From an uncultured Gammaproteobacteria bacterium (GTDB lineage Bacteria > Patescibacteriota > Patescibacteriia > UBA2591 > UBA6264), in assembly GCA_964566895.1 (NCBI GenBank), contig CAZMJP010000002.1:1-43359 (forward strand): DNA of 43,359 nt, written 5' to 3'. A model generated the notes under the pieces. The model was given only the letters and a program-made list of their open reading frames with translations, was not told the DNA's origin and searched no databases. Both the position numbers and the translations under genes were made by a program. The stretch's first letter is position 1, and each line of letters opens with the position of its first letter. This document shows, one piece after another, positions 7,458 to 42,596 of this stretch.

Positions 7458-7865
7458 TCAAGAGGTGATCTTCGGCTCCTGACCATAAAATGGTTGAACT
7501 ATCCTCTTCTCTCTAAACTTTAATAATTTAGCCAAACCCCTATTCATCAATATTTTATTGTCCTCGCTTGGCCGCAAATTAACTCCGACAACCGGAATCC
7601 TTAACAGCCAAGCCAAAGTATTAGCCACGGACAAAGCGATTCTAATGCCGGCAAAAGAACCCGGGCCATTAACCACAACAATCCCCTTAATGGCTTTCCA
7701 AGACTTCCTGTTTCCTTTTAAAAGCCTATCTATGCCTTTTAAGATATTTTCACTTTGATTATTTTGTTTTGGCGAATCAATCCAAACTAAATTCTTGTCA
7801 TTTCTACTTTTGAACAAAGATGAAAATACTTTATTGCCGGACAAATTATTGATGAATAAAAACAT
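7458..7865 (-). CDS. tsaB: tRNA t6A biosynthesis protein TsaB, short form
   Basis: The GPGSFAGIRIALSVANTLAW motif is characteristic of TsaB/YeaZ. The protein is only 135 aa, so only the N-terminal half of the usual protein is present. Confidence 0.65.
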   Translation of the reverse strand: MFLFINNLSGNKVFSSLFKSRNDKNLVWIDSPKQNNQSENILKGIDRLLKGNRKSWKAIKGIVVVNGPGSFAGIRIALSVANTLAWLLRIPVVGVNLRPSEDNKILMNRGLAKLLKFREKRIVQPFYGQEPKITS

Positions 7866-7935
7866 ATATTTTGTTTACACTCTTATTGATTTGTATTATA
7901 ATATAATTGCCCTAATTTATCAATCATACAATTCT

Positions 7936-9969
7936 ATGTCTGATAATATCAACATCGGTCAAATTTGCGTTTCCAACCCAAAGAAATCAAATAAGTGCTC
8001 TTATCTTTATCTGGCCGAGCCGGAAAAAAAATTCCTGGAAAAATTCGGCCGGTTGGGTATTTTAATCAATTTGAACCTCAAACACAACATAGGAAACGAG
8101 GTCCTCTCCCAAGCCGAAGGATGGACGCAAAGTTTAACCGATTTCATCAAGGCCGACTTTTACAGCTCCACCAGACCAACCGACGACGCGGAAGGAGAAT
8201 TTGAAAACCTGCTGCAGAAAATCAATAACTGGCTTCAACAGCAAAAAATAAAAAGAAGCGATTTGTTTAAAAAAGACGTTTCCAGCCTTGATATTAACGT
8301 GATTGCTATCCTGGATAAAAACGTTTATTTTAGCCAAATTGGCGGTATCAAGACCTATTTAATCCCTGTATCTCCGAAAGACAAATCTAATAAGGCCGGA
8401 CAAGAATTAACCGAAGACCTCTCCTTTCCTTCGGAAACAAACGGAGAAATTTTTCCAAATGTAATCAGCGGAACGTTAGAAGACGACGGCGTTCTGCTCT
8501 TTGCCACAAAAAACTTATTTGACTATTTTCCTCTTAAAAAGATTTCTCAAATGTTAAAAGAACTGCCGGTTAAGCGAGCTGTCTCAGAAATAAAACAGCT
8601 TTTGCCAGACGAAATCAATCGAATTAATCTATTAACCTTAATCATCTCTAACCGCGACGAATCTTCATTATTCAGTCCGGATAAACCAATCCAGCCTGTT
8701 TTGAAAAAGCCGAGTAAAACCGGAATCCATTCGGCAGCGGAAAAAATAAAAACATCCCAGGAAGCGGAACCGCCCATAAAAAAAACATTCCTCAAAATAC
8801 CCTGCCGAGAGACAAAACCCAAAATTAATAAACAAAAAACACTCCTGATTATTTTAATCATTTTTGCTCTACTTTTCATTCAAAGTATAGTTTTTTTAAG
8901 CAAGCAAGAGCTAAAAGCCCGTCAAGATAAAAAATATACCCAGCTGGTTGAAGACTTGAAGAACAAGGAATCCGAATTATCTATTGCCCTAATTTATCCC
9001 GACTCGGATAAAAGTGAGAAACTGCTGGCTGAAATAAAACGATTATTAAATGAACTGCCTCAAAAAACCCAAGAGCAGAAAGAAAATTACCAACTTTTTT
9101 ATAATCGATATATTCAACAAATGAATAAACTTTATCACTTATTTGTTCTTGATAATCCTGAGCTCCTAATTGATTTAAAGCAAATTGATGAAAACATCGA
9201 AACCGGCGGACTAACCAATATTGGGGACAATTTTTATGTTTTTAATCCGGGAAACAATTATATTTATTTCCTCAATATCCAAACGAGAGAAACCAAAATG
9301 GTCAACAGGACATCGGTTAATGTCGGCCGGTTACGACAATTAGCCATTTTAGACGATGATAATCTAATCGGTTATGACCAAAATCAAGGCTTAGCCACTT
9401 TTAATACCATTGACAATAAATTAATCCCGCTAAAGATTAATCGTTCTCATAGCACAACCGGCATTGAAGACCTATTTGTTTACGGCCGTTACGTTTACCT
9501 CCTTGAGCCGACTAATAATCAAATCTATAAATATTCCAAAACCATTGACGGTTTTGGCAAAGAAGAAGCCTGGATTCAGGACGGGACAAACATCGTCGGC
9601 GCTTTATCCTTAACCATTGACGGCTCTGTCTATATTCTTAAAGGAAACGGGCAAATCCTTAAATTTTACAAAAACAAACAAGTAGAAGAATTTACTCCGG
9701 ACAGTATCCAGCCCGCTCTTTCTATCCAAGACCCAAACATTGTCAATGGCCGGGAAAAAACAAAAATATTTACCGACCCCGATAAAACATATCTTTATCT
9801 TTTGGACGGACAAACTAAAAGACTGATTATCTTAACTAAACAGGGTAAATTAGTTAAACAAATAACAAGCCCCCAATTTGAAGACCTGAAAGACTTTATT
9901 ATCAGCAAAAATGAAACTAGAGCCTGGCTTTTGGCCGGCACGAAAATATTTGAAATCCAGATAGAATAG
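7936..9969 (+). CDS. Single-pass membrane protein of unknown function: cytoplasmic N-domain, TM helix, coiled coil, C-terminal beta-propeller-like region
   Basis: The ATG at 7936 is preferred over the track start at 7795, which would overlap tsaB. The transmembrane segment is LLIILIIFALLFIQSIVFL. A K/E-rich helical stretch follows, then repeated strand-rich segments (YVFNPGNNYIYFLN, YVYLLEPTNNQIYKY, SVYILKGNGQILKF, YLYLLDGQTKRLIIL). Confidence 0.6.
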   Translation: MSDNINIGQICVSNPKKSNKCSYLYLAEPEKKFLEKFGRLGILINLNLKHNIGNEVLSQAEGWTQSLTDFIKADFYSSTRPTDDAEGEFENLLQKINNWLQQQKIKRSDLFKKDVSSLDINVIAILDKNVYFSQIGGIKTYLIPVSPKDKSNKAGQELTEDLSFPSETNGEIFPNVISGTLEDDGVLLFATKNLFDYFPLKKISQMLKELPVKRAVSEIKQLLPDEINRINLLTLIISNRDESSLFSPDKPIQPVLKKPSKTGIHSAAEKIKTSQEAEPPIKKTFLKIPCRETKPKINKQKTLLIILIIFALLFIQSIVFLSKQELKARQDKKYTQLVEDLKNKESELSIALIYPDSDKSEKLLAEIKRLLNELPQKTQEQKENYQLFYNRYIQQMNKLYHLFVLDNPELLIDLKQIDENIETGGLTNIGDNFYVFNPGNNYIYFLNIQTRETKMVNRTSVNVGRLRQLAILDDDNLIGYDQNQGLATFNTIDNKLIPLKINRSHSTTGIEDLFVYGRYVYLLEPTNNQIYKYSKTIDGFGKEEAWIQDGTNIVGALSLTIDGSVYILKGNGQILKFYKNKQVEEFTPDSIQPALSIQDPNIVNGREKTKIFTDPDKTYLYLLDGQTKRLIILTKQGKLVKQITSPQFEDLKDFIISKNETRAWLLAGTKIFEIQIE

Positions 9970-11049: not shown

Positions 11050-11199
11050 AATATCCTCAAAAACATTTTAATAAAAAACTGCGAATCGCCGCAGACTTCG
11101 TTTAATATTGATTGCTAAGCTTGCCTTGGCAGGCTCTTCCGCCGAGAGCGGAAAATTAAGTTCTTTTAAAAACGCCTGCTGTCTACGGCTATAAATAAG
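11050..11199 (-). promoter_or_regulatory. Structured 5' leader of rplJL (possible L10-leader-type autoregulatory element)
   Basis: About 150 nt lie between the consensus promoter and the rplJ ATG. The minus-strand leader contains hairpins including CCGCTCTCGGCGG and CTGCGGCGATTCGCAG. Assignment to the L10 leader family was not verified. Confidence 0.35.
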
Positions 11200-11227
11200 A
11201 TTATAAATAACTTGATAAATTTGTCAA
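11200..11227 (-). promoter_or_regulatory. Consensus sigma70-type promoter for rplJL
   Basis: Minus strand reads TTGACA (11227-11222), a 16-nt spacer, then TATAAT (11205-11200). Confidence 0.7.
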
Positions 11228-29768: not shown

Positions 29769-30512
29769 CTAGTGCTCTTGCGTTTTTTTTGTTTTTTCTC
29801 TTCCCCGCTCTACAGCCTCGGCAACCAAGCTGGTAATTAATTCAATTGACTTAATCGCGTCGTCGTTGGCCGGGATTGGCCAATCGATAAGTTCTGGATT
29901 GGCGTTGGTGTCAACCACAGCTACGGTTGGTATTTTAGACCTTCTCGCTTCTCTAACGCCCGTTTTTTCTTTAACAATGTCAATTATATAAATTATATCC
30001 GGTTTCCTTTTAAGATTTTTTATTCCGCCGACTAAGGTTTGCAGTTTATCCAATTTTTTTAAAAATTCATGCCGCTCTTTTTTAGTATATTTTTCCCATT
30101 CTCCCTCATCTTTCTCTTTTTGCATTTTATTGAACTTTTCAATTAAGCCCGAGATGGTGGAAAAATTAGTCAAGATACCTCCCAACCAACGTTCAGTAAC
30201 ATAAGGAATATCTAATTTTTCAGCATACTTTTTAACAATATCTTTAGCCGCCGGTTTGGTGCCAACAAATAAGATGTTAGCCCCCTGACTGACAGAGCTA
30301 GCGATAAAATTAAGAGCTCCCCGAAGTTTTTCAGACGTTTTCTCTAAATCAATAATATGAATTGTATTTTTAGCGCCGTAAATATATGGGTCCATTTGGG
30401 GAGAATGTCTTGTTGTTTTATGCCCTAAATGAAGGCCGGCTTTAGCCATATCCAAAGTAGATGGAATCTTCACCTCATTAGAAACGGAGATTTTTTGTTT
30501 ATCTGTTGCCAT
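29769..30512 (-). CDS. rpsB: 30S ribosomal protein S2
   Basis: Motifs AGLHLGHKTTRHSPQM, ILFVGTK, YVTERWLGGILTN and DTNANPE. The ATG at 30512 is preferred; the track start at 30524 is a TTG. Confidence 0.93.
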   Translation of the reverse strand: MATDKQKISVSNEVKIPSTLDMAKAGLHLGHKTTRHSPQMDPYIYGAKNTIHIIDLEKTSEKLRGALNFIASSVSQGANILFVGTKPAAKDIVKKYAEKLDIPYVTERWLGGILTNFSTISGLIEKFNKMQKEKDEGEWEKYTKKERHEFLKKLDKLQTLVGGIKNLKRKPDIIYIIDIVKEKTGVREARRSKIPTVAVVDTNANPELIDWPIPANDDAIKSIELITSLVAEAVERGREKTKKTQEH

Positions 30513-30626
30513 AAGTTTATTCAATCAAATTAAGTTATCGCCCCGCCGCTAAAAGAAAAAATTAAACCTCCTACGGGGAATCAAACCAATCTTAGTATAA
30601 CATAATCATAGAAAAAAGCAAAATAC

Positions 30627-32113: not shown

Positions 32114-33202
32114 TCAATATAGTACTCGGTGATTTTTAGAAACAATCTCTATCCAAATTGTTCCCGGCAAAAATTTTATTTCCTCACTCTCAAGGTCGTA
32201 AAATTTAGTCCGCGAGTTTTGCTCCAATTTCTCCCATCTCCCCTGCTTTAAAAAACCGTTTTGAAAAATAAGCGCTTCCCCTTGACCGATAGTTTTAATA
32301 AATCGCCGACCAACTTCGTCCAAGATATTTATTTCGGTTTTCTGAATAACTAAATTTTCAACTCCGATCTGCCTTCCGCTCTGATCAAAAAACGGTTGGC
32401 CGTCCTGGAAGCGCAAATAAACCTGATTATCTTTGTCAAACTGCCAAACAACCGGCTGGCGGTAATCAATTTTAACTATTACCCCGCTCTCCTCTTCTTT
32501 TTTTTCGCCGCTTGAAAGGGAAAGGGTCGGGAGGCTTTCAAATCCCCAGTCTTCAAAATCTGGACTAATTGCATTAACCAGATTTTTTTTATTTATCAGA
32601 CTAACGATTGATTGCCTGGAAATATATAAATTGTGCGGACCTTGTCTTTGCTCATCACGCCAGAAATAACCTCCGTCTCCGCTAATTTCGTCTAAATCGT
32701 AAATAATGGAATAAAAATGTTGGCTAATCTTCTGCAACGCTTCACTGCTACCTCCGGCATGAACGAAAATCGCCCCATACTCTCCCGCCCAATCAACTAA
32801 ATAAGGTCTGGCTGACCTAACCGGACCAATCTCATCCGGCAAAAAATCTTGGTCAAATACAGCCAAAAAACGAGTAATGTCAGCTTCAACCGGAGCTTCA
32901 TAAACAACCGAGGCCCGGTCAACGCCGCTGATTGGTAAAGACTCCTTCAAATTATCCAAAACAACAGCTATCGGCAACTTATCAAAACGATTCTCCTGAA
33001 GCTGTTCAACAACCAGCGGCTCCCCAATATCTTCAAAACCTTGCCAATCAGGAAAAACTTCTCGTCCGATAGAAACATCTTGACTACTAAAAACTTCTTG
33101 GTTGGATAATTGATTTTTATGACGATCAGGCAATAAAATAAAGAATAACGTCAAAAAAAAGACCAAACTGACCAGTCCAACTATTTTTGTAAAATTAGAC
33201 AT
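32114..33202 (-). CDS. DUF3048-family secreted/membrane-anchored protein (YerB-like)
   Basis: N-terminal anchor helix followed by segments PIAVVLDN..., VVYEAPVEADITRFLAVF and VRSARPYLVDWA, which resemble DUF3048 N- and C-domains. Recognition is from memory. Confidence 0.55.
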   Translation of the reverse strand: MSNFTKIVGLVSLVFFLTLFFILLPDRHKNQLSNQEVFSSQDVSIGREVFPDWQGFEDIGEPLVVEQLQENRFDKLPIAVVLDNLKESLPISGVDRASVVYEAPVEADITRFLAVFDQDFLPDEIGPVRSARPYLVDWAGEYGAIFVHAGGSSEALQKISQHFYSIIYDLDEISGDGGYFWRDEQRQGPHNLYISRQSIVSLINKKNLVNAISPDFEDWGFESLPTLSLSSGEKKEEESGVIVKIDYRQPVVWQFDKDNQVYLRFQDGQPFFDQSGRQIGVENLVIQKTEINILDEVGRRFIKTIGQGEALIFQNGFLKQGRWEKLEQNSRTKFYDLESEEIKFLPGTIWIEIVSKNHRVLY

Positions 33203-38279: not shown

Positions 38280-39785
38280 TTAGATCTTTAACTCTTCCTT
38301 ATAAATTTTTAAAACTTTGTCTTTTAATTCTTCCGGTATAGTTTCGGCCGAGTGAATGCCAAAATATTTTTTTATTAATTCCTTCTCTCTTTTTTTTGCC
38401 TCTTTTAAATACAATTTCTTGAATAAATCAATTAATTCGCCTTTATATCCATTTTGGTAAGCTAAGTAAAAAGCTAATAATTGTTCATCCCTCCCTAAAA
38501 GAGAAACATCGTAACCATAGTTACTATCCTTGTCGCAACCGAAGAGGGCGTATTTTTGTCTATACTTCAGTTTCAACATATTGTTCCTTAATTCTACTTT
38601 TTTGGGATTGATATTGTTCGCTAAAAGAAAAATAAAAATTCTCGCGCATTTTGAGCAATTTCCGCACCAACGACTCTTCCTTTTTATTATTTTATATTCA
38701 TTAAAAGAAGAACAAGACATCTGATATTTGGCAATTTCAGGATAGCGATGGTGTAAAATTTTAATAATGGCAAGTTCGTGAAGCGGCTCAATTAAAGAAC
38801 CGACTTTAAGATTTTCCATCCCCAAAAGTTGAACGATTTTTCCTAATTTCTGAATCCACTCCACGCTTTGTTCATAGACGGGATTACACCAAAAACCTTC
38901 CTTATCCAAAAATTTATCATTGCAAGACTGTTCATTGGAGAAGAAAAGATAGTTAGTCATTCTTGCAAAAGCAATCGGCAGAACGATTAACCCAAATTGG
39001 GTTAGTTGCATCTCCCAACCATACCAGCCATCGTCAGACGGATTTTTATACGGCTCGCGCAAGCTGCCGGCCTCATTTTTAATAAATAAAATTTTTTGTT
39101 TGAATTCTTCAAAAAATTTTTCCGCTAATTTTTCCTTGAGATGATCCTCGGTTTGAGAAAGAGGCTCCTTTACATACGCCGGCATTGTTTTAATTCCGAT
39201 TTCTTTGCATAAACTATAAGTAAGCAAACTGTCTTTCCCAAAAGTAAAAAATATAAGAGCGGTATTCCTAATCTTTCTTAATGGTAGGGTAAAAGGAACG
39301 GAAGCTTCTTTCCTATTAAAATGATATTTAGTTTGAGATAATTTTTCTAAATACTTTGAAGCCTTCTCGGACTTCATTAGGGCGGTGGCGGGCAAAGAAT
39401 CCCTGAATCCCTCTCCAATCATATCTTTGACTGAAGGTTTTGACATAAGATACCACAAAGAACCAATATCCAAGAGACAAGGCAGGTGCAAGGTTAAAGC
39501 AAAAGTCAAATTCTCTAAAAGAACTTTCTTTAAAAACAAGGGATACTTCCCCCAAATATTTCTGGGATAGACGACGGAAAAATCTTTTTGATTGAAACTA
39601 ATAAGAAATCCTTTCTCTTTAATTTCCGGCTTGATTAAAATCTTTTTCGAAATAAAAAAAGAGTCGCCCTCTTCTTTTTTAGACTCTTTAATTGAAATCT
39701 CCAAAGGTCCGCTCCTACTTGGAGGTTCGTCTTCTTCTTTAGTTATGGTAATAGATGAAGTTTTTGTTTTTTCAAGAGTTTGCAT
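38280..39785 (-). CDS. Uncharacterised 501-aa protein with a PP-loop-like motif and a C-terminal Cys cluster (possible adenine-nucleotide alpha-hydrolase-fold adenylating enzyme)
   Basis: ALIFFTFGKDSLLTY resembles the SGGxDS PP-loop, and RWCGNCSKCARIF resembles the CxxC...C zinc motif of QueC-type PP-loop enzymes. Its stop codon lies 1 nt from the start of the ATP-grasp gene. Confidence 0.6.
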   Translation of the reverse strand: MQTLEKTKTSSITITKEEDEPPSRSGPLEISIKESKKEEGDSFFISKKILIKPEIKEKGFLISFNQKDFSVVYPRNIWGKYPLFLKKVLLENLTFALTLHLPCLLDIGSLWYLMSKPSVKDMIGEGFRDSLPATALMKSEKASKYLEKLSQTKYHFNRKEASVPFTLPLRKIRNTALIFFTFGKDSLLTYSLCKEIGIKTMPAYVKEPLSQTEDHLKEKLAEKFFEEFKQKILFIKNEAGSLREPYKNPSDDGWYGWEMQLTQFGLIVLPIAFARMTNYLFFSNEQSCNDKFLDKEGFWCNPVYEQSVEWIQKLGKIVQLLGMENLKVGSLIEPLHELAIIKILHHRYPEIAKYQMSCSSFNEYKIIKRKSRWCGNCSKCARIFIFLLANNINPKKVELRNNMLKLKYRQKYALFGCDKDSNYGYDVSLLGRDEQLLAFYLAYQNGYKGELIDLFKKLYLKEAKKREKELIKKYFGIHSAETIPEELKDKVLKIYKEELKI

Positions 39786-39871: not shown

Positions 39872-40684
39872 TCACCTCTGACATTTTGGACAAAAACAAG
39901 TAGTCCGGCCGGAAAGTTTGATTGCTTTTATTTTTGCTCCGCAACGAAAACATTCTTGACCTTCTCTCCCATAAACTTTCAAACGGGTAATAAAGTTTCC
40001 CTCTCTCCCATCAACATCTCGATAAGCGTCTACTGATGTTCCTCCGCTCTTAATAGCCGCGTTCATTATTTTTCTTAAGCCATCATAAACATCCTTGACT
40101 TCCCCGTTTTCCAAAGTTCCAACTTTTCTTTCCGGATTGACCTTGGCGTAAAAGCAAGTCTCCTGAGCATAAATGTTCCCGATACCGGCTAAAAATTTCT
40201 GGTCCATCAGCAACGGTTTAATTTTGGCCTTTTTCTTTTTTAACAATAACTCTTTGAATTTCTCCGGGGTAAAATCTTTGGAAAGCGGCTCCGGCCCAAA
40301 CTCTTTATTTAAAATTTTATCTGTTTGGGAAGTACTCAATAATTTCATGTAACCAAACTTCCTTAAATCTTTATAAAGCAATTTTTTACTGCCCTCAAAT
40401 TCAAAAATAACACTGGTATGTTTGTCCGGCTTTTGGTCCATAATCAAAAGACCGGTCAATTTTAAATGAACTAATAATGAATCGCCGCTGGATAAATCAA
40501 TAACTAAAAGTTTTGCTCTTCTTCGAAGAGATTTGATTTTTACTCCTTTCGTTTTAGAAATGAATTTAGGGACAGAAACATTAATCAGGCGAGGATTGAG
40601 CACCTCCACCCCTCTAATAGTTTCTCCTTTAATTCGCTTTTCAAGTTGAAGTTTAATTGTTTCCACTTCAGGTAATTCAGGCAT
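39872..40684 (-). CDS. mutM: Formamidopyrimidine-DNA glycosylase
   Basis: MPELPEVETI catalytic N-terminus, H2TH region and a C-terminal zinc finger (CFRCGAKI...CFCPKCQ). The gene ends at a TGA stop. Confidence 0.92.
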   Translation of the reverse strand: MPELPEVETIKLQLEKRIKGETIRGVEVLNPRLINVSVPKFISKTKGVKIKSLRRRAKLLVIDLSSGDSLLVHLKLTGLLIMDQKPDKHTSVIFEFEGSKKLLYKDLRKFGYMKLLSTSQTDKILNKEFGPEPLSKDFTPEKFKELLLKKKKAKIKPLLMDQKFLAGIGNIYAQETCFYAKVNPERKVGTLENGEVKDVYDGLRKIMNAAIKSGGTSVDAYRDVDGREGNFITRLKVYGREGQECFRCGAKIKAIKLSGRTTCFCPKCQR

Positions 40685-40752: not shown

Positions 40753-41007
40753 TTAGATTTGAAACAGATGCCCATAAATTCTTATTCCAAATTTCCCTTC
40801 CGGCGTCAGCAGCACGCTGGTCGCCATGGGAACATTTTTCCCTCTATTACCATGGCAAAGAGCCTCCATCTCGGGACAACAGATATTTTTCACTATCACC
40901 CCATCCTCCCGGGGGATAATAGTAAAATCTGGATGATTCTCCAGCCATCTCTTGGCTGGCTGTCCCTCAATCCTTCTCTTTGCCGCCGACCTTAAGCGAT
41001 ATTTCAT
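40753..41007 (-). CDS. Small basic Cys/His-containing protein, unknown function (84 aa)
   Basis: The ATG at 41007 is preceded by GGAGGT at a 3-nt spacing and by a consensus promoter. The sequence is MKYRLRSAAKRRIEG...NICCPEMEALCHGN.... The track's longer form starts upstream of that promoter. Confidence 0.55.
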   Translation of the reverse strand: MKYRLRSAAKRRIEGQPAKRWLENHPDFTIIPREDGVIVKNICCPEMEALCHGNRGKNVPMATSVLLTPEGKFGIRIYGHLFQI

Positions 41008-41035
41008 TTTACCTCCATAAATTAAAGTTGCCCTT

Positions 41036-41064
41036 ATTATAAATAAATTTATAAATCTTGTCAA
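41036..41064 (-). promoter_or_regulatory. Consensus sigma70-type promoter of the 84-aa gene
   Basis: Minus strand reads TTGACA (41064-41059), a 17-nt spacer, then TATAAT (41041-41036). Confidence 0.7.
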
Positions 41065-41132
41065 GGATAATTGTTTCAGACTCAACTCATTAACTCACTT
41101 CGGAAAAGGAATATCAGACCCCCGGAGGCCCC

Positions 41133-41160
41133 TTGACTTTTTTAAATAAACTACTATAAT
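41133..41160 (+). promoter_or_regulatory. Near-consensus sigma70-type promoter driving the non-coding transcript
   Basis: TTGACT (41133-41138), a 16-nt spacer, then TATAAT (41155-41160). It is divergent from the promoter at 41036-41064. Confidence 0.65.
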
Positions 41161-41166
41161 ATTAAC

Positions 41167-41330
41167 ATTAAACAACCTGAAAATAGGAGAATATATCCCG
41201 GCGGTGTTGGGTGCGCTATCTCTCTACTTTCATATCCTACTAAAATTAAATATCCCCCCTAATATAAAAAAGGTAGGAAGCGCCCAATACCGCATACATT
41301 TAAGCCCTTATCCACAAGGGCTTTTGATTT
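41167..41330 (+). ncRNA. Candidate structured small RNA (~160 nt), family unknown
   Basis: It starts about 7 nt after the -10 element. A 14-bp closing stem pairs 41201-41214 with 41280-41293, and an inner stem pairs CCTAC (41236-41240) with GTAGG (41273-41277). The AT-rich apical region displays CCCCCC. It ends at the terminator AAGCCCTT-ATCCAC-AAGGGCTT + TTGATTTT (41302-41330). No convincing ORF is present. Confidence 0.5.
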
Positions 41331-41585
41331 TAGAAAATGGTGTCCAAAACTGCTCTTTTAAATTACTGGTGATTTCAACATGAAAGATTTTCTGGTCGTA
41401 AAAGAGAATACATGTATGCCAAATCACCCTTGAATCGCCAAACTAAAACCATGAGATTACCGAATGGCTCCGTGTCGTGGACGATGTTAGAACCATTATT
41501 CAGCGACAAAACGAGTATATTTATATACCTGACTTGAGAAAATTTGCGAACGCCTGAACTTAATCAGCCTCTCATTGTTGTCTTA

Positions 41586-42419
41586 TTACTTCCCTTTGAG
41601 TTTCCTTTTTTCTATTTTCTCCAGATGTTTTATCTCTTTTTTAATTTCTCTGATGTGCTTTTCTGAAGGCAACTGTTCTGGGGGAACACCACCAATCTCT
41701 TTAATCGTTTGCCTTATTTTACCACCAACCATAAAATGAATTTTGGATGCCGCCCCCTCTCCTTGTATTTTACCATTTTTTATCTTTTCATCAGTCTGTG
41801 TAATGCGAAACAAATTTGCGGCTAACTCCGTAGAACCCGCCCTATCCAACAACTCACCCCTTTTAATACCCTTCTTTTGTTCTACTTCAGATAAAGGAGC
41901 ACCATAAAGCCCTTGATAACCAGCATCATTAAATAGTCCAAAATTAGAGACCCCCGCCTCTTTCGCTGTTTTGAAAAGTTTTTTATTATGGTCAGAAACT
42001 TGACCGCGAATAAATAGCCTTTTAGCTGTATCTGGGAGTTGCTCAAATACTTCTTGTCGCCTTGTTTGAATGGCAAAATAAGTTTGTGCTAATGCTATCT
42101 CGGGTTTACTGGGGTCTCCATTTTGAGCTATCAAATAACAAGCGTATCTATCCAGCTTAAAATCCCCCACTTTTCGCACCGTATTTGAGCCAATTTTGAC
42201 CAATTTGCTGATTTTAGCAAAATGGTTATCCACATCCTGCCCGCTTTCCATACACGCCCGTGCGGCTCTTCCTATAACCTCCTCAAAGTTACGCCATTGG
42301 GAATAGCCAAGCAAAAGCATAAGCCCACGAGCCATCCAATACTCAACGCCATTTTCGTCAATCTTTTTTATGCTCTCAAAATCTCTATGTGGAGCGTTTG
42401 GTATTAGTTCGTTTGTCAT
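41586..42419 (-). CDS. dinD: DNA-damage-inducible protein D family
   Basis: Collinear similarity to E. coli DinD as recalled from memory: KIGSN..., RYACYLIAQNGDPSKPEIALAQTYFAIQTRRQE, GYQGLYG and GSTELAANLFRITQTDEK. Confidence 0.85.
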   Translation of the reverse strand: MTNELIPNAPHRDFESIKKIDENGVEYWMARGLMLLLGYSQWRNFEEVIGRAARACMESGQDVDNHFAKISKLVKIGSNTVRKVGDFKLDRYACYLIAQNGDPSKPEIALAQTYFAIQTRRQEVFEQLPDTAKRLFIRGQVSDHNKKLFKTAKEAGVSNFGLFNDAGYQGLYGAPLSEVEQKKGIKRGELLDRAGSTELAANLFRITQTDEKIKNGKIQGEGAASKIHFMVGGKIRQTIKEIGGVPPEQLPSEKHIREIKKEIKHLEKIEKRKLKGK

Positions 42420-42538
42420 AAAATCTATTTTACATAATAAAAAGTGAAGTGATGAGTCTTACCCCACCCCGCTACTCACTATATTATTATAACACAAAAC
42501 TTCCAGAAACGGAAGCTTTATGTTGGAACAGCAAGCTA

Positions 42539-42596
42539 CTAGATCTAAATATTGGGGTCTAGATCTAATATTGGGGTCTGACCCCAAAAATCGACC
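42539..42596. repeat. Tandem 19-20-bp direct repeat plus inverted GGGGTC/GACCCC hexamers (candidate operator array)
   Basis: CTAGATCTAAATATTGGGGT is followed by CTAGATCTAATATTGGGGT, then CTGACCCCAAAAATCGACCCC. This gives four GGGGTC-type hexamers, including the palindrome GGGGTC-T-GACCCC. Confidence 0.6.

Follow-up and report, generated by a model that had tools for sequence, protein, structure and literature searches.

RsaE/RoxS and the Staphylococcus Rsa class are C-rich-loop small RNAs (sRNAs) of Firmicutes that carry UCCC motifs, and RsaE/RoxS is conserved across the Bacillales. Orphan sRNAs are also known on horizontally acquired islands in enterobacteria. Members of the Candidate Phyla Radiation (CPR) have tiny genomes and few regulators and, to our knowledge, regulatory RNAs are almost undescribed among them. 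In this sense, a validated sRNA in CPR would constitute a useful first example.

Here we describe an RNA candidate found in a window of 43,359 nucleotides, the whole stretch of DNA that was analysed, which comes from a freshwater metagenome. We propose that it is a free-standing, strain- or species-specific non-coding RNA gene of ~165 nt that acts as a base-pairing regulator, and we assign to this reading a probability of roughly 0.45. A near-consensus promoter of the sigma-70 type would drive transcription of the plus strand, and an intrinsic terminator would end the RNA near 41331. The product would be one long hairpin formed by a 14-bp stem, a 20-nt internal loop, a 7-bp stem and a 30-nt loop that exposes UCCCCCCU. 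By analogy with the C-rich-loop sRNAs, this single-stranded C-run may pair with G-rich stretches of mRNA leaders, either Shine-Dalgarno-like sequences or G-tracts.

The candidate resembles RsaE/RoxS in being a short RNA with its own promoter and intrinsic terminator, and in having a loop-borne C-run, unpaired in the predicted fold, which would be able to pair with G-rich or Shine-Dalgarno sequences. With these three features it would be counted, as modelled, among the C-rich-loop RNAs. Unlike RsaE/RoxS, it has no sequence or structure match to RsaE or to any Rfam family, its host belongs to the CPR (Parcubacteria), it shows no conservation in the other genomes searched and no target is supported for it; it also contains one C-run, whereas the Rsa class has two or more. 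The likeness to the orphan sRNAs of islands and prophages is that the candidate is strain-specific and lies in a non-syntenic accessory segment, beside orphan genes and recombination-associated DNA. It differs from them in that no mobile-element boundaries can be drawn around it and no phage or plasmid similarity was found. The candidate is a single-genome orphan of a well-known kind, and reading it as an sRNA is reasonable.

Host, neighbourhood and transcription unit

The Fpg protein of the window is at most 67% identical to any other, its three closest relatives being at 64-67%, and the named matches at 53-58% identity belong to Parcubacteria and Kuenenbacteria MAGs. Judging from these comparisons, the host is a Parcubacteria-type CPR bacterium without a close sequenced relative. 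The original prediction had placed the RNA beside regulatory RNAs of Gram-positive bacteria; the Fpg matches do not sustain this framing, given that Parcubacteria (CPR) are not classical Gram-positives. Gene order around fpg differs in the three closest Fpg relatives, that is, synteny is lost. As far as the sequence tells, the candidate is in a variable, non-syntenic segment between fpg and an element associated with mobile DNA and recombination (Table 1).

Divergently oriented to the candidate there is an orphan gene of 84 aa, with a GGAGG Shine-Dalgarno sequence and a perfect TTGACA-17-TATAAT promoter (41064-41036, minus strand). Its product carries a CCPxxxxxCH motif; a search of 5.8 billion proteins gave no relative, Pfam and NCBIfam gave no match, and the single-sequence AlphaFold2 model (pLDDT 50) is unusable for a fold search. 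Such an orphan neighbour fits young or decaying DNA. Also in the window, a 501-aa protein (38280-39785, minus strand) shows a weak likeness to MurL, the UDP-MurNAc-L-Ala-L-Glu epimerase (8e-14, far below the family cut-off). The MurL-like gene adjoins D-Ala-D-Ala ligase-like and radical-SAM/lysine aminomutase-like genes, with which it may form an unusual cell-wall or peptide-modification cluster.

Table 1. Features of the window around the RNA candidate, in the order of their positions.
Feature	Position	Strand	Description and basis
fpg	39872-40684	-	
Orphan 84-aa gene	40753-41064 including promoter; ATG 41010	-	divergent from the RNA candidate
-35 hexamer TTGACT	41133-41138	+	consensus scan
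-10 hexamer TATAAT	41155-41160	+	16-nt spacer; consensus scan
Closing stem, 5' arm	41201-41214	+	14 bp including 2 G-U; MFE and centroid folds agree
Asymmetric internal loop, 20 nt (UAUCUCUCUACUUUCAUA...)	41215-41234	+	predicted fold
Inner stem, 5' arm UCCUACU	41235-41241	+	7 bp including one U-G; predicted fold
Apical loop, 30 nt, A/U-rich	41242-41271	+	predicted fold
C-run UCCCCCCU, proposed seed	41253-41260	+	unpaired in MFE and centroid folds
Inner stem, 3' arm GGUAGGA	41272-41278	+	predicted fold
Closing stem, 3' arm	41280-41293	+	predicted fold
Intrinsic terminator	41302-41331	+	8-bp stem (41302-41323), 6-nt loop, then UUGAUUUU; consensus scan
Box 1	41466-41557	+	reads ...LRVVDDVRTIIQRQNEYIYIPDLRKFANA*; no start codon; begins 135 nt past the terminator
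dinD	41586-42419	-	NCBIfam DinD 4e-102; Bro-N domain
Box 2 (CTTACCCCACCCCGCTACTCACTAT)	42458-42485	+	25-nt box; as reverse complement it opens the dinD leader and contains GGGGUGGGG

A consensus scan recovered the TTGACT-16-TATAAT promoter that had been claimed from the sequence, with 11 of 12 consensus matches (41133-41160). Taking the usual 7-nt distance past the -10 hexamer, the transcript would start at about 41167. The whole window contains nine sigma-70-like sites that match the consensus at 11 or more of 12 positions, against 0.86 expected in Markov-1 random sequence (~10x enrichment). Five of them, according to an assignment read off the ORF list, lie directly 5' of transcription units, namely the L10 leader, the MurL-like gene, the genes 29769-30524 and 7458-7865, and the 84-aa gene. 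A sixth one, at plus-strand position 7874, is probably the promoter of gene 7795-9969 on the same strand, if the true start of this gene lies 3' of the listed TTG; the remaining three are the 41133 site itself and two sites within ORFs. Since near-consensus sites are enriched and most of them are located 5' of genes, such sites look functional here and the promoter at 41133 is credible. In agreement, Rfam identifies the leader of ribosomal protein L10 (RF00557, 51.3 bits) at 11064-11206 on the minus strand, and a perfect consensus promoter at 11227 precedes it, indicating that this CPR genome makes use of consensus promoters of the sigma-70 type.

At the other end of the unit, the scan found the terminator as originally described, with its 8-bp stem (41302-41323) followed by TTGATTTT; the scan gives the tail as TTGATTTTAG. 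On the minus strand this hairpin has no U-tract and the terminator is therefore one-directional. The distance from promoter to terminator is ~165 nt, close to the ~160 nt first proposed, and the unit (~41167-41331, plus strand) contains no credible ORF, all of this at the level of the sequence. It is unlikely that a promoter, a strand-specific stable hairpin and a terminator occur by coincidence inside 200 nt of ORF-free DNA.

Predicted fold, coding potential and known families

We folded the full unit (41165-41335) and the hairpin alone (41196-41298), and compared each of them with 200 dinucleotide shuffles. In both cases the MFE fold equals the centroid fold, and this common structure is identical to the one drawn by eye in the original prediction, with its 14-bp closing stem and its inner stem. 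Both folds also leave UCCCCCCU unpaired, so that the exposed C-loop is retained in the models. The fold energy of the full unit is -46.3 kcal/mol (z = -4.44), and no shuffle was as good (0/200). For the hairpin alone, the plus strand gave z = -4.10 and again 0/200, whereas the minus strand gave z = -1.62 with 11/200 shuffles as good. The structure is strand-specific because three G-U pairs turn into C-A mismatches on the minus strand, and the strand that folds is the plus strand, in agreement with the orientation of promoter and terminator. A transcript of this kind, if made, would be expected to be stable. It counts against the sRNA reading that the hairpin consists mostly of large loops and has little intricate structure.

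Strand specificity also bears on the idea that the hairpin works as DNA, for instance as a recombination site, a single-strand origin or a MITE, and not as an RNA. The hairpin and the boundary of a serine-recombinase-associated element are 170 nt apart, which would be in favor of this. However, as DNA the stem is mismatched, given the change of G-U to C-A on the other strand, and the repeat search did not report the hairpin as an inverted repeat. Moreover, each arm, like the hairpin as a whole, occurs just once in the window, and no further copies at mobile-element junctions were found here or in other genomes. There are no flanking direct repeats and no second att-like core flanking the candidate, and the promoter and terminator fit a plus-strand RNA. 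We consider a DNA-level role to be highly improbable.

The only plus-strand ORF in the unit encodes 59 aa (41204-41383) from a GTG at 41204 and passes through the terminator. It could be argued that the unit is the mRNA or leader of a small protein, either this one or a peptide ending at the TAA of the C-loop, with the hairpin and terminator working as an attenuator. An AGGAG at 41185-41189, near the 5' end of the transcript, precedes the 59-codon frame as this explanation would have it, but its spacing to the GTG, 14 nt, is too long, and the GTG is buried inside the 14-bp closing stem. The 59-aa ORF crosses the terminator and had no match in a Pfam search, the shorter frame has no canonical start codon, and beyond the terminator there is no intact gene. 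Altogether, a small-protein mRNA seems very unlikely. The original prediction had also asked whether the region might be the translated 5' end of a gene; the unit holds no credible ORF, its sole frame being the one without a Pfam match.

Downstream of the terminator no intact plus-strand ORF was found, and the 135 nt of 41331-41465 contain stops in all frames. For this reason, a reading of the candidate as a leader fails. A riboswitch or attenuation leader was discarded in the same way, as no regulated gene on the same strand lies directly 3' and the next feature is box 1, which lacks a start codon. We also rejected a type I toxin-antitoxin system: the RNA does not overlap the 84-aa gene, from which it is divergently oriented with 70 nt between the promoters, and no small hydrophobic ORF has a start that could be used. 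A retron msr-msd RNA was considered too; the closing stem is present, but no plus-strand ORF follows and there is no Rfam retron match.

With respect to known families, a scan of the whole window with Rfam 15 at gathering thresholds, which covers among others 6S, SRP, tmRNA, RNase P, riboswitches, RsaE, raiA, HEARO and OLE, gave the L10 leader at 11064-11206 as its sole match and none at the candidate. A permissive Rfam scan of positions 40950-41650 yielded over the RNA only sub-threshold chance matches (at most 22 bits, E ~0.8 or above), and ARAGORN found no tRNA or tmRNA gene in the window. The statement, made by eye at the outset, that the RNA cannot be matched to SRP, 6S, tmRNA, RNase P or a riboswitch is borne out by these scans. 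RsaE/RoxS-like homology or conservation was likewise not detected, either as an Rfam match or as a homologue in the scans.

Relatives and possible targets

Relatives of the candidate were sought at several levels. A gapped pattern built from the closing-stem arms had 0 matches in 185,579 species genomes and 0 in IMG/VR viral contigs. Its sole match in JGI metagenome contigs was dismissed as a chance match that has nothing else in common with the window; it sits in long ORF-like sequence beside apparent ABC-type ATPase motifs (locus L034). A pattern of the inner stem and C-loop gave 0 matches in IMG/VR, a single-sequence covariance model run over 230 kb of Patescibacteria (CPR) loci returned noise only, and blastn against phage and plasmid collections did not match the candidate. 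A homologue search through the MurL-like neighbour retrieved no related loci in JGI metagenome contigs. The original prediction had pointed to covarying homologues in related genomes as a check, and these pattern, covariance-model and blastn searches brought up no homologue in the collections searched, and so no sign of covariation or of purifying selection, which counts against the sRNA reading. The contigs that carry the 84-aa gene are all identical over 1 kb around the locus, including those from different samples, and are thus uninformative about drift. Three sequencing runs were found to contain the locus, all of them DNA runs and none an RNA run, and they show no variants and no joints there.

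These results have to be weighed against the possibility that the unit is a non-functional relic, in which promoter, hairpin and terminator are remnants within acquired DNA that is decaying, and a transcript might be produced without being under selection. The lack of a homologue in any collection searched is what such a relic would show, as are the orphan status of the 84-aa neighbour among 5.8 billion proteins, the stops in all frames of 41331-41465 after the terminator, the sharp boundary of the recombination-associated element that the unit abuts and the synteny gone in the relatives. Nevertheless, decay would be expected to wear away at least one of promoter, fold and terminator, and here a near-perfect promoter, a strand-specific fold with z of about -4 and a clean terminator are all intact within 200 nt. 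We therefore regard a relic, the strongest of the competing explanations, as rather unlikely, and keep a base-pairing sRNA as the preferred reading.

As to what such an sRNA would pair with, the original prediction had singled out the dinD 5' region, and GGGGTGGGG is indeed present on the dinD sense strand at 42461-42469. We compared the apical loop with the 5' regions of 40 genes in the window (43 kb of genome). The best duplex, of 8 bp between UCCCCCCU and AGGGGGGA, lies 20-29 nt upstream of gene 32114-33202 (-17.7 kcal/mol) and is followed by the leader of a 148-aa orphan gene (-17.4 kcal/mol). The dinD leader reaches -17.2 kcal/mol, and only with a 20-nt internal loop in the duplex and A/U-rich flanks. 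These top three regions are within 0.5 kcal/mol of one another, and pairing of the C-loop with the dinD leader is thus no better than with other 5' regions. Shuffled loops scored as well in 3% of cases, a figure to be read with care as shuffling breaks up the C-run. Since the window contains nine runs of at least 6 G, none of the top duplexes is distinctive. In addition, GGGGTGGGG is box 2 of the element described below, read on the dinD strand, and is consequently not peculiar to this dinD gene. As a target it loses its appeal, being part of a conserved 25-nt box that occurs in dozens of CPR loci without this RNA.

A broader version of the same idea is that the C-run pairs with box 2 as a G-rich leader sequence (GCGGGGUGGGGUAA) which cargo mRNAs, dinD for example, have conserved at their 5' end, so that the RNA would be a regulator dedicated to the cassette. 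We see this as a long shot. Were it true, CPR bacteria would have an sRNA, encoded by the host or by the element, that silences or fine-tunes cassette genes they have newly gained.

A two-box element in CPR genomes and its comparison with known systems

The segment next to the candidate, 41465-41562, was matched at 80-90% identity by many unrelated short metagenome contigs. It contains box 1 of a two-box element, conserved in different classes of Patescibacteria, that we consider a more valuable outcome than the RNA candidate itself and that deserves its own study; in the window, dinD (41586-42419) is the cargo between box 1 and box 2. The DNA pattern of box 1 occurs in 24 genome loci, which include Parcubacteria, Saccharibacteria, Doudnabacteria, Peribacteria and other CPR groups; the loci with the element that we analysed beside the window are L006 and L008-L033. 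By nhmmer (E <1e-8) there are 41 copies of box 1, often two or three per locus and always co-oriented. Copies of the element are often found in arrays and often at contig ends.

Information content is ~0 up to a sharp boundary, between ..TGG and CTCCG.., and mostly >1 bit beyond it. Substitutions in box 1 number 291/126/77 on third, first and second codon positions, and this third-position excess indicates protein-level selection on the plus strand. Box 1 codes for ...LRIVDNVRTIIQRQNEYIYIPDL..., as a rule with no start codon; a usable start is missing from most copies, and three copies lack any start. A protein search with the box-1 peptide retrieved only short ORFs that share just its C-terminal part. 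An exhaustive profile search gave 170 protein clusters with the motif, which is at or near the C-terminus in 150 of the 150 matches listed of these 170 clusters. The long matches are large serine recombinases, or their C-terminal halves, whose tail ends in ...VRTIIQRQNEYIYIPDL; they comprise the L018 recombinase (519 aa, with Resolvase and Recombinase domains), P0275 (Zn_ribbon_recom), P0176, P0222, P0178 and P0201. The recombinase bodies are 20-30% identical, while the tail reaches up to ~55% between them and is ~45-80% identical to the box-1 copies of the loci. Given the tag-like ...YANA* end and the missing start, box 1 was also considered as a tmRNA, and this was rejected: there is no tRNA-like domain and no upstream conservation, the element is multi-copy and its peptide proved to be a recombinase tail.

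In L018 (1130-3327, minus strand), the frame of a full-length serine recombinase continues into box 1, the one such fusion that was seen, and a gene for a 212-aa Bro-N domain protein directly precedes the recombinase gene on the same strand. The DinD of the window also has a Bro-N domain, which may be a coincidence or a hint of an accessory factor.

Box 2, which reads (TT)ACCCCACCCCGCTACTCACTAT, is always downstream of box 1 and on the same strand, at a gap of ~80 nt or of 0.3-3.9 kb with accessory genes between. All credible cargo genes are on the strand opposite to the boxes; they include dinD, DUF3800, NUDIX, NYN, histidine phosphatase, Ham1, MerR with DUF4325 and small membrane proteins. 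RNA covariation was found on neither strand of the element, and the element is absent from IMG/VR. In the literature searched we found nothing relevant on a CPR recombinase, cassette or integron-like system.

The orientation of the cargo raises another explanation for the RNA candidate, namely a cis-acting convergent unit, which by antisense RNA or as a roadblock would oppose dinD read-through toward the 84-aa gene and fpg and would have no function in trans. There is no intrinsic terminator between the dinD stop codon and the RNA gene, the 41302-41323 hairpin offers no U-tract to minus-strand transcripts, and the next terminator-like hairpin on that strand (41131-41116) is already past the RNA gene, with the consequence that dinD read-through transcripts would be fully antisense to the RNA. 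The argument is positional alone, however. Elsewhere a bidirectional terminator usually lies 5-50 nt from box 1 without any RNA unit, and a comparable promoter, short transcript and terminator upstream of box 1 occur in one other locus only (L011). A convergent unit is accordingly unlikely, and the trans-acting sRNA remains our preferred interpretation.

Some other observations concern DNA next to the boxes. In L011 (reverse complement, ~14-45 and 409-445), two direct copies of a ~35-nt core (ACAATGTGGC...GTGGA.GATGTT.GAAC), made up of 10 nt of flank and the initial third of box 1, enclose ~390 nt. This segment holds a stem-enclosed tRNA-like gene and the consensus promoter, short transcript and terminator mentioned above, and by its sequence it resembles a small insertion between att-like repeats. 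The occurrence of a promoter, transcript and terminator near box 1 in L011 and in the window is too little for a pattern. On a related CPR contig, a box-1 copy is directly adjoined by a fluoride riboswitch (RF01734, 37.4 bits; L006 3001-3062, minus strand), which lies 5' of a gene for an MFS transporter. In the window, an exact 13-nt direct repeat, AATATTGGGGTCT, is present in two copies 19 nt apart (42548-42579), just past box 2 and between dinD and the 148-aa orphan gene; such a repeat could be a protein-binding site.

Our working hypothesis is that each of these integrases recombines at a site which overlaps the 3' end of its own gene. A crossover at the box-1 boundary would leave solo tails behind, and incoming elements could then make use of resident ones. 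Three features would be accounted for in this way, namely the sharpness of the boundary, the co-orientation of the arrays and the stronger conservation of the tail compared with the enzyme. If true, it would represent a new way for streamlined CPR genomes to collect and exchange accessory genes, and would also account for recurrent assembly breaks in CPR MAGs.

In Mycobacterium tuberculosis, the dispersed REP13E12 repeats are integration sites of phiRv1, which uses a serine integrase. The two-box element likewise links a large serine recombinase to a conserved site present in multiple dispersed copies, and it resembles integron cassette arrays in its co-oriented copies separated by variable accessory genes. 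In contrast to integrons, it has no tyrosine integrase and no attC-type hairpin. Unlike both systems, the site supplies the final ~25 codons and the stop of the recombinase itself, is conserved across a phylum-level radiation, and is accompanied by a second box, with cargo possible between the two.
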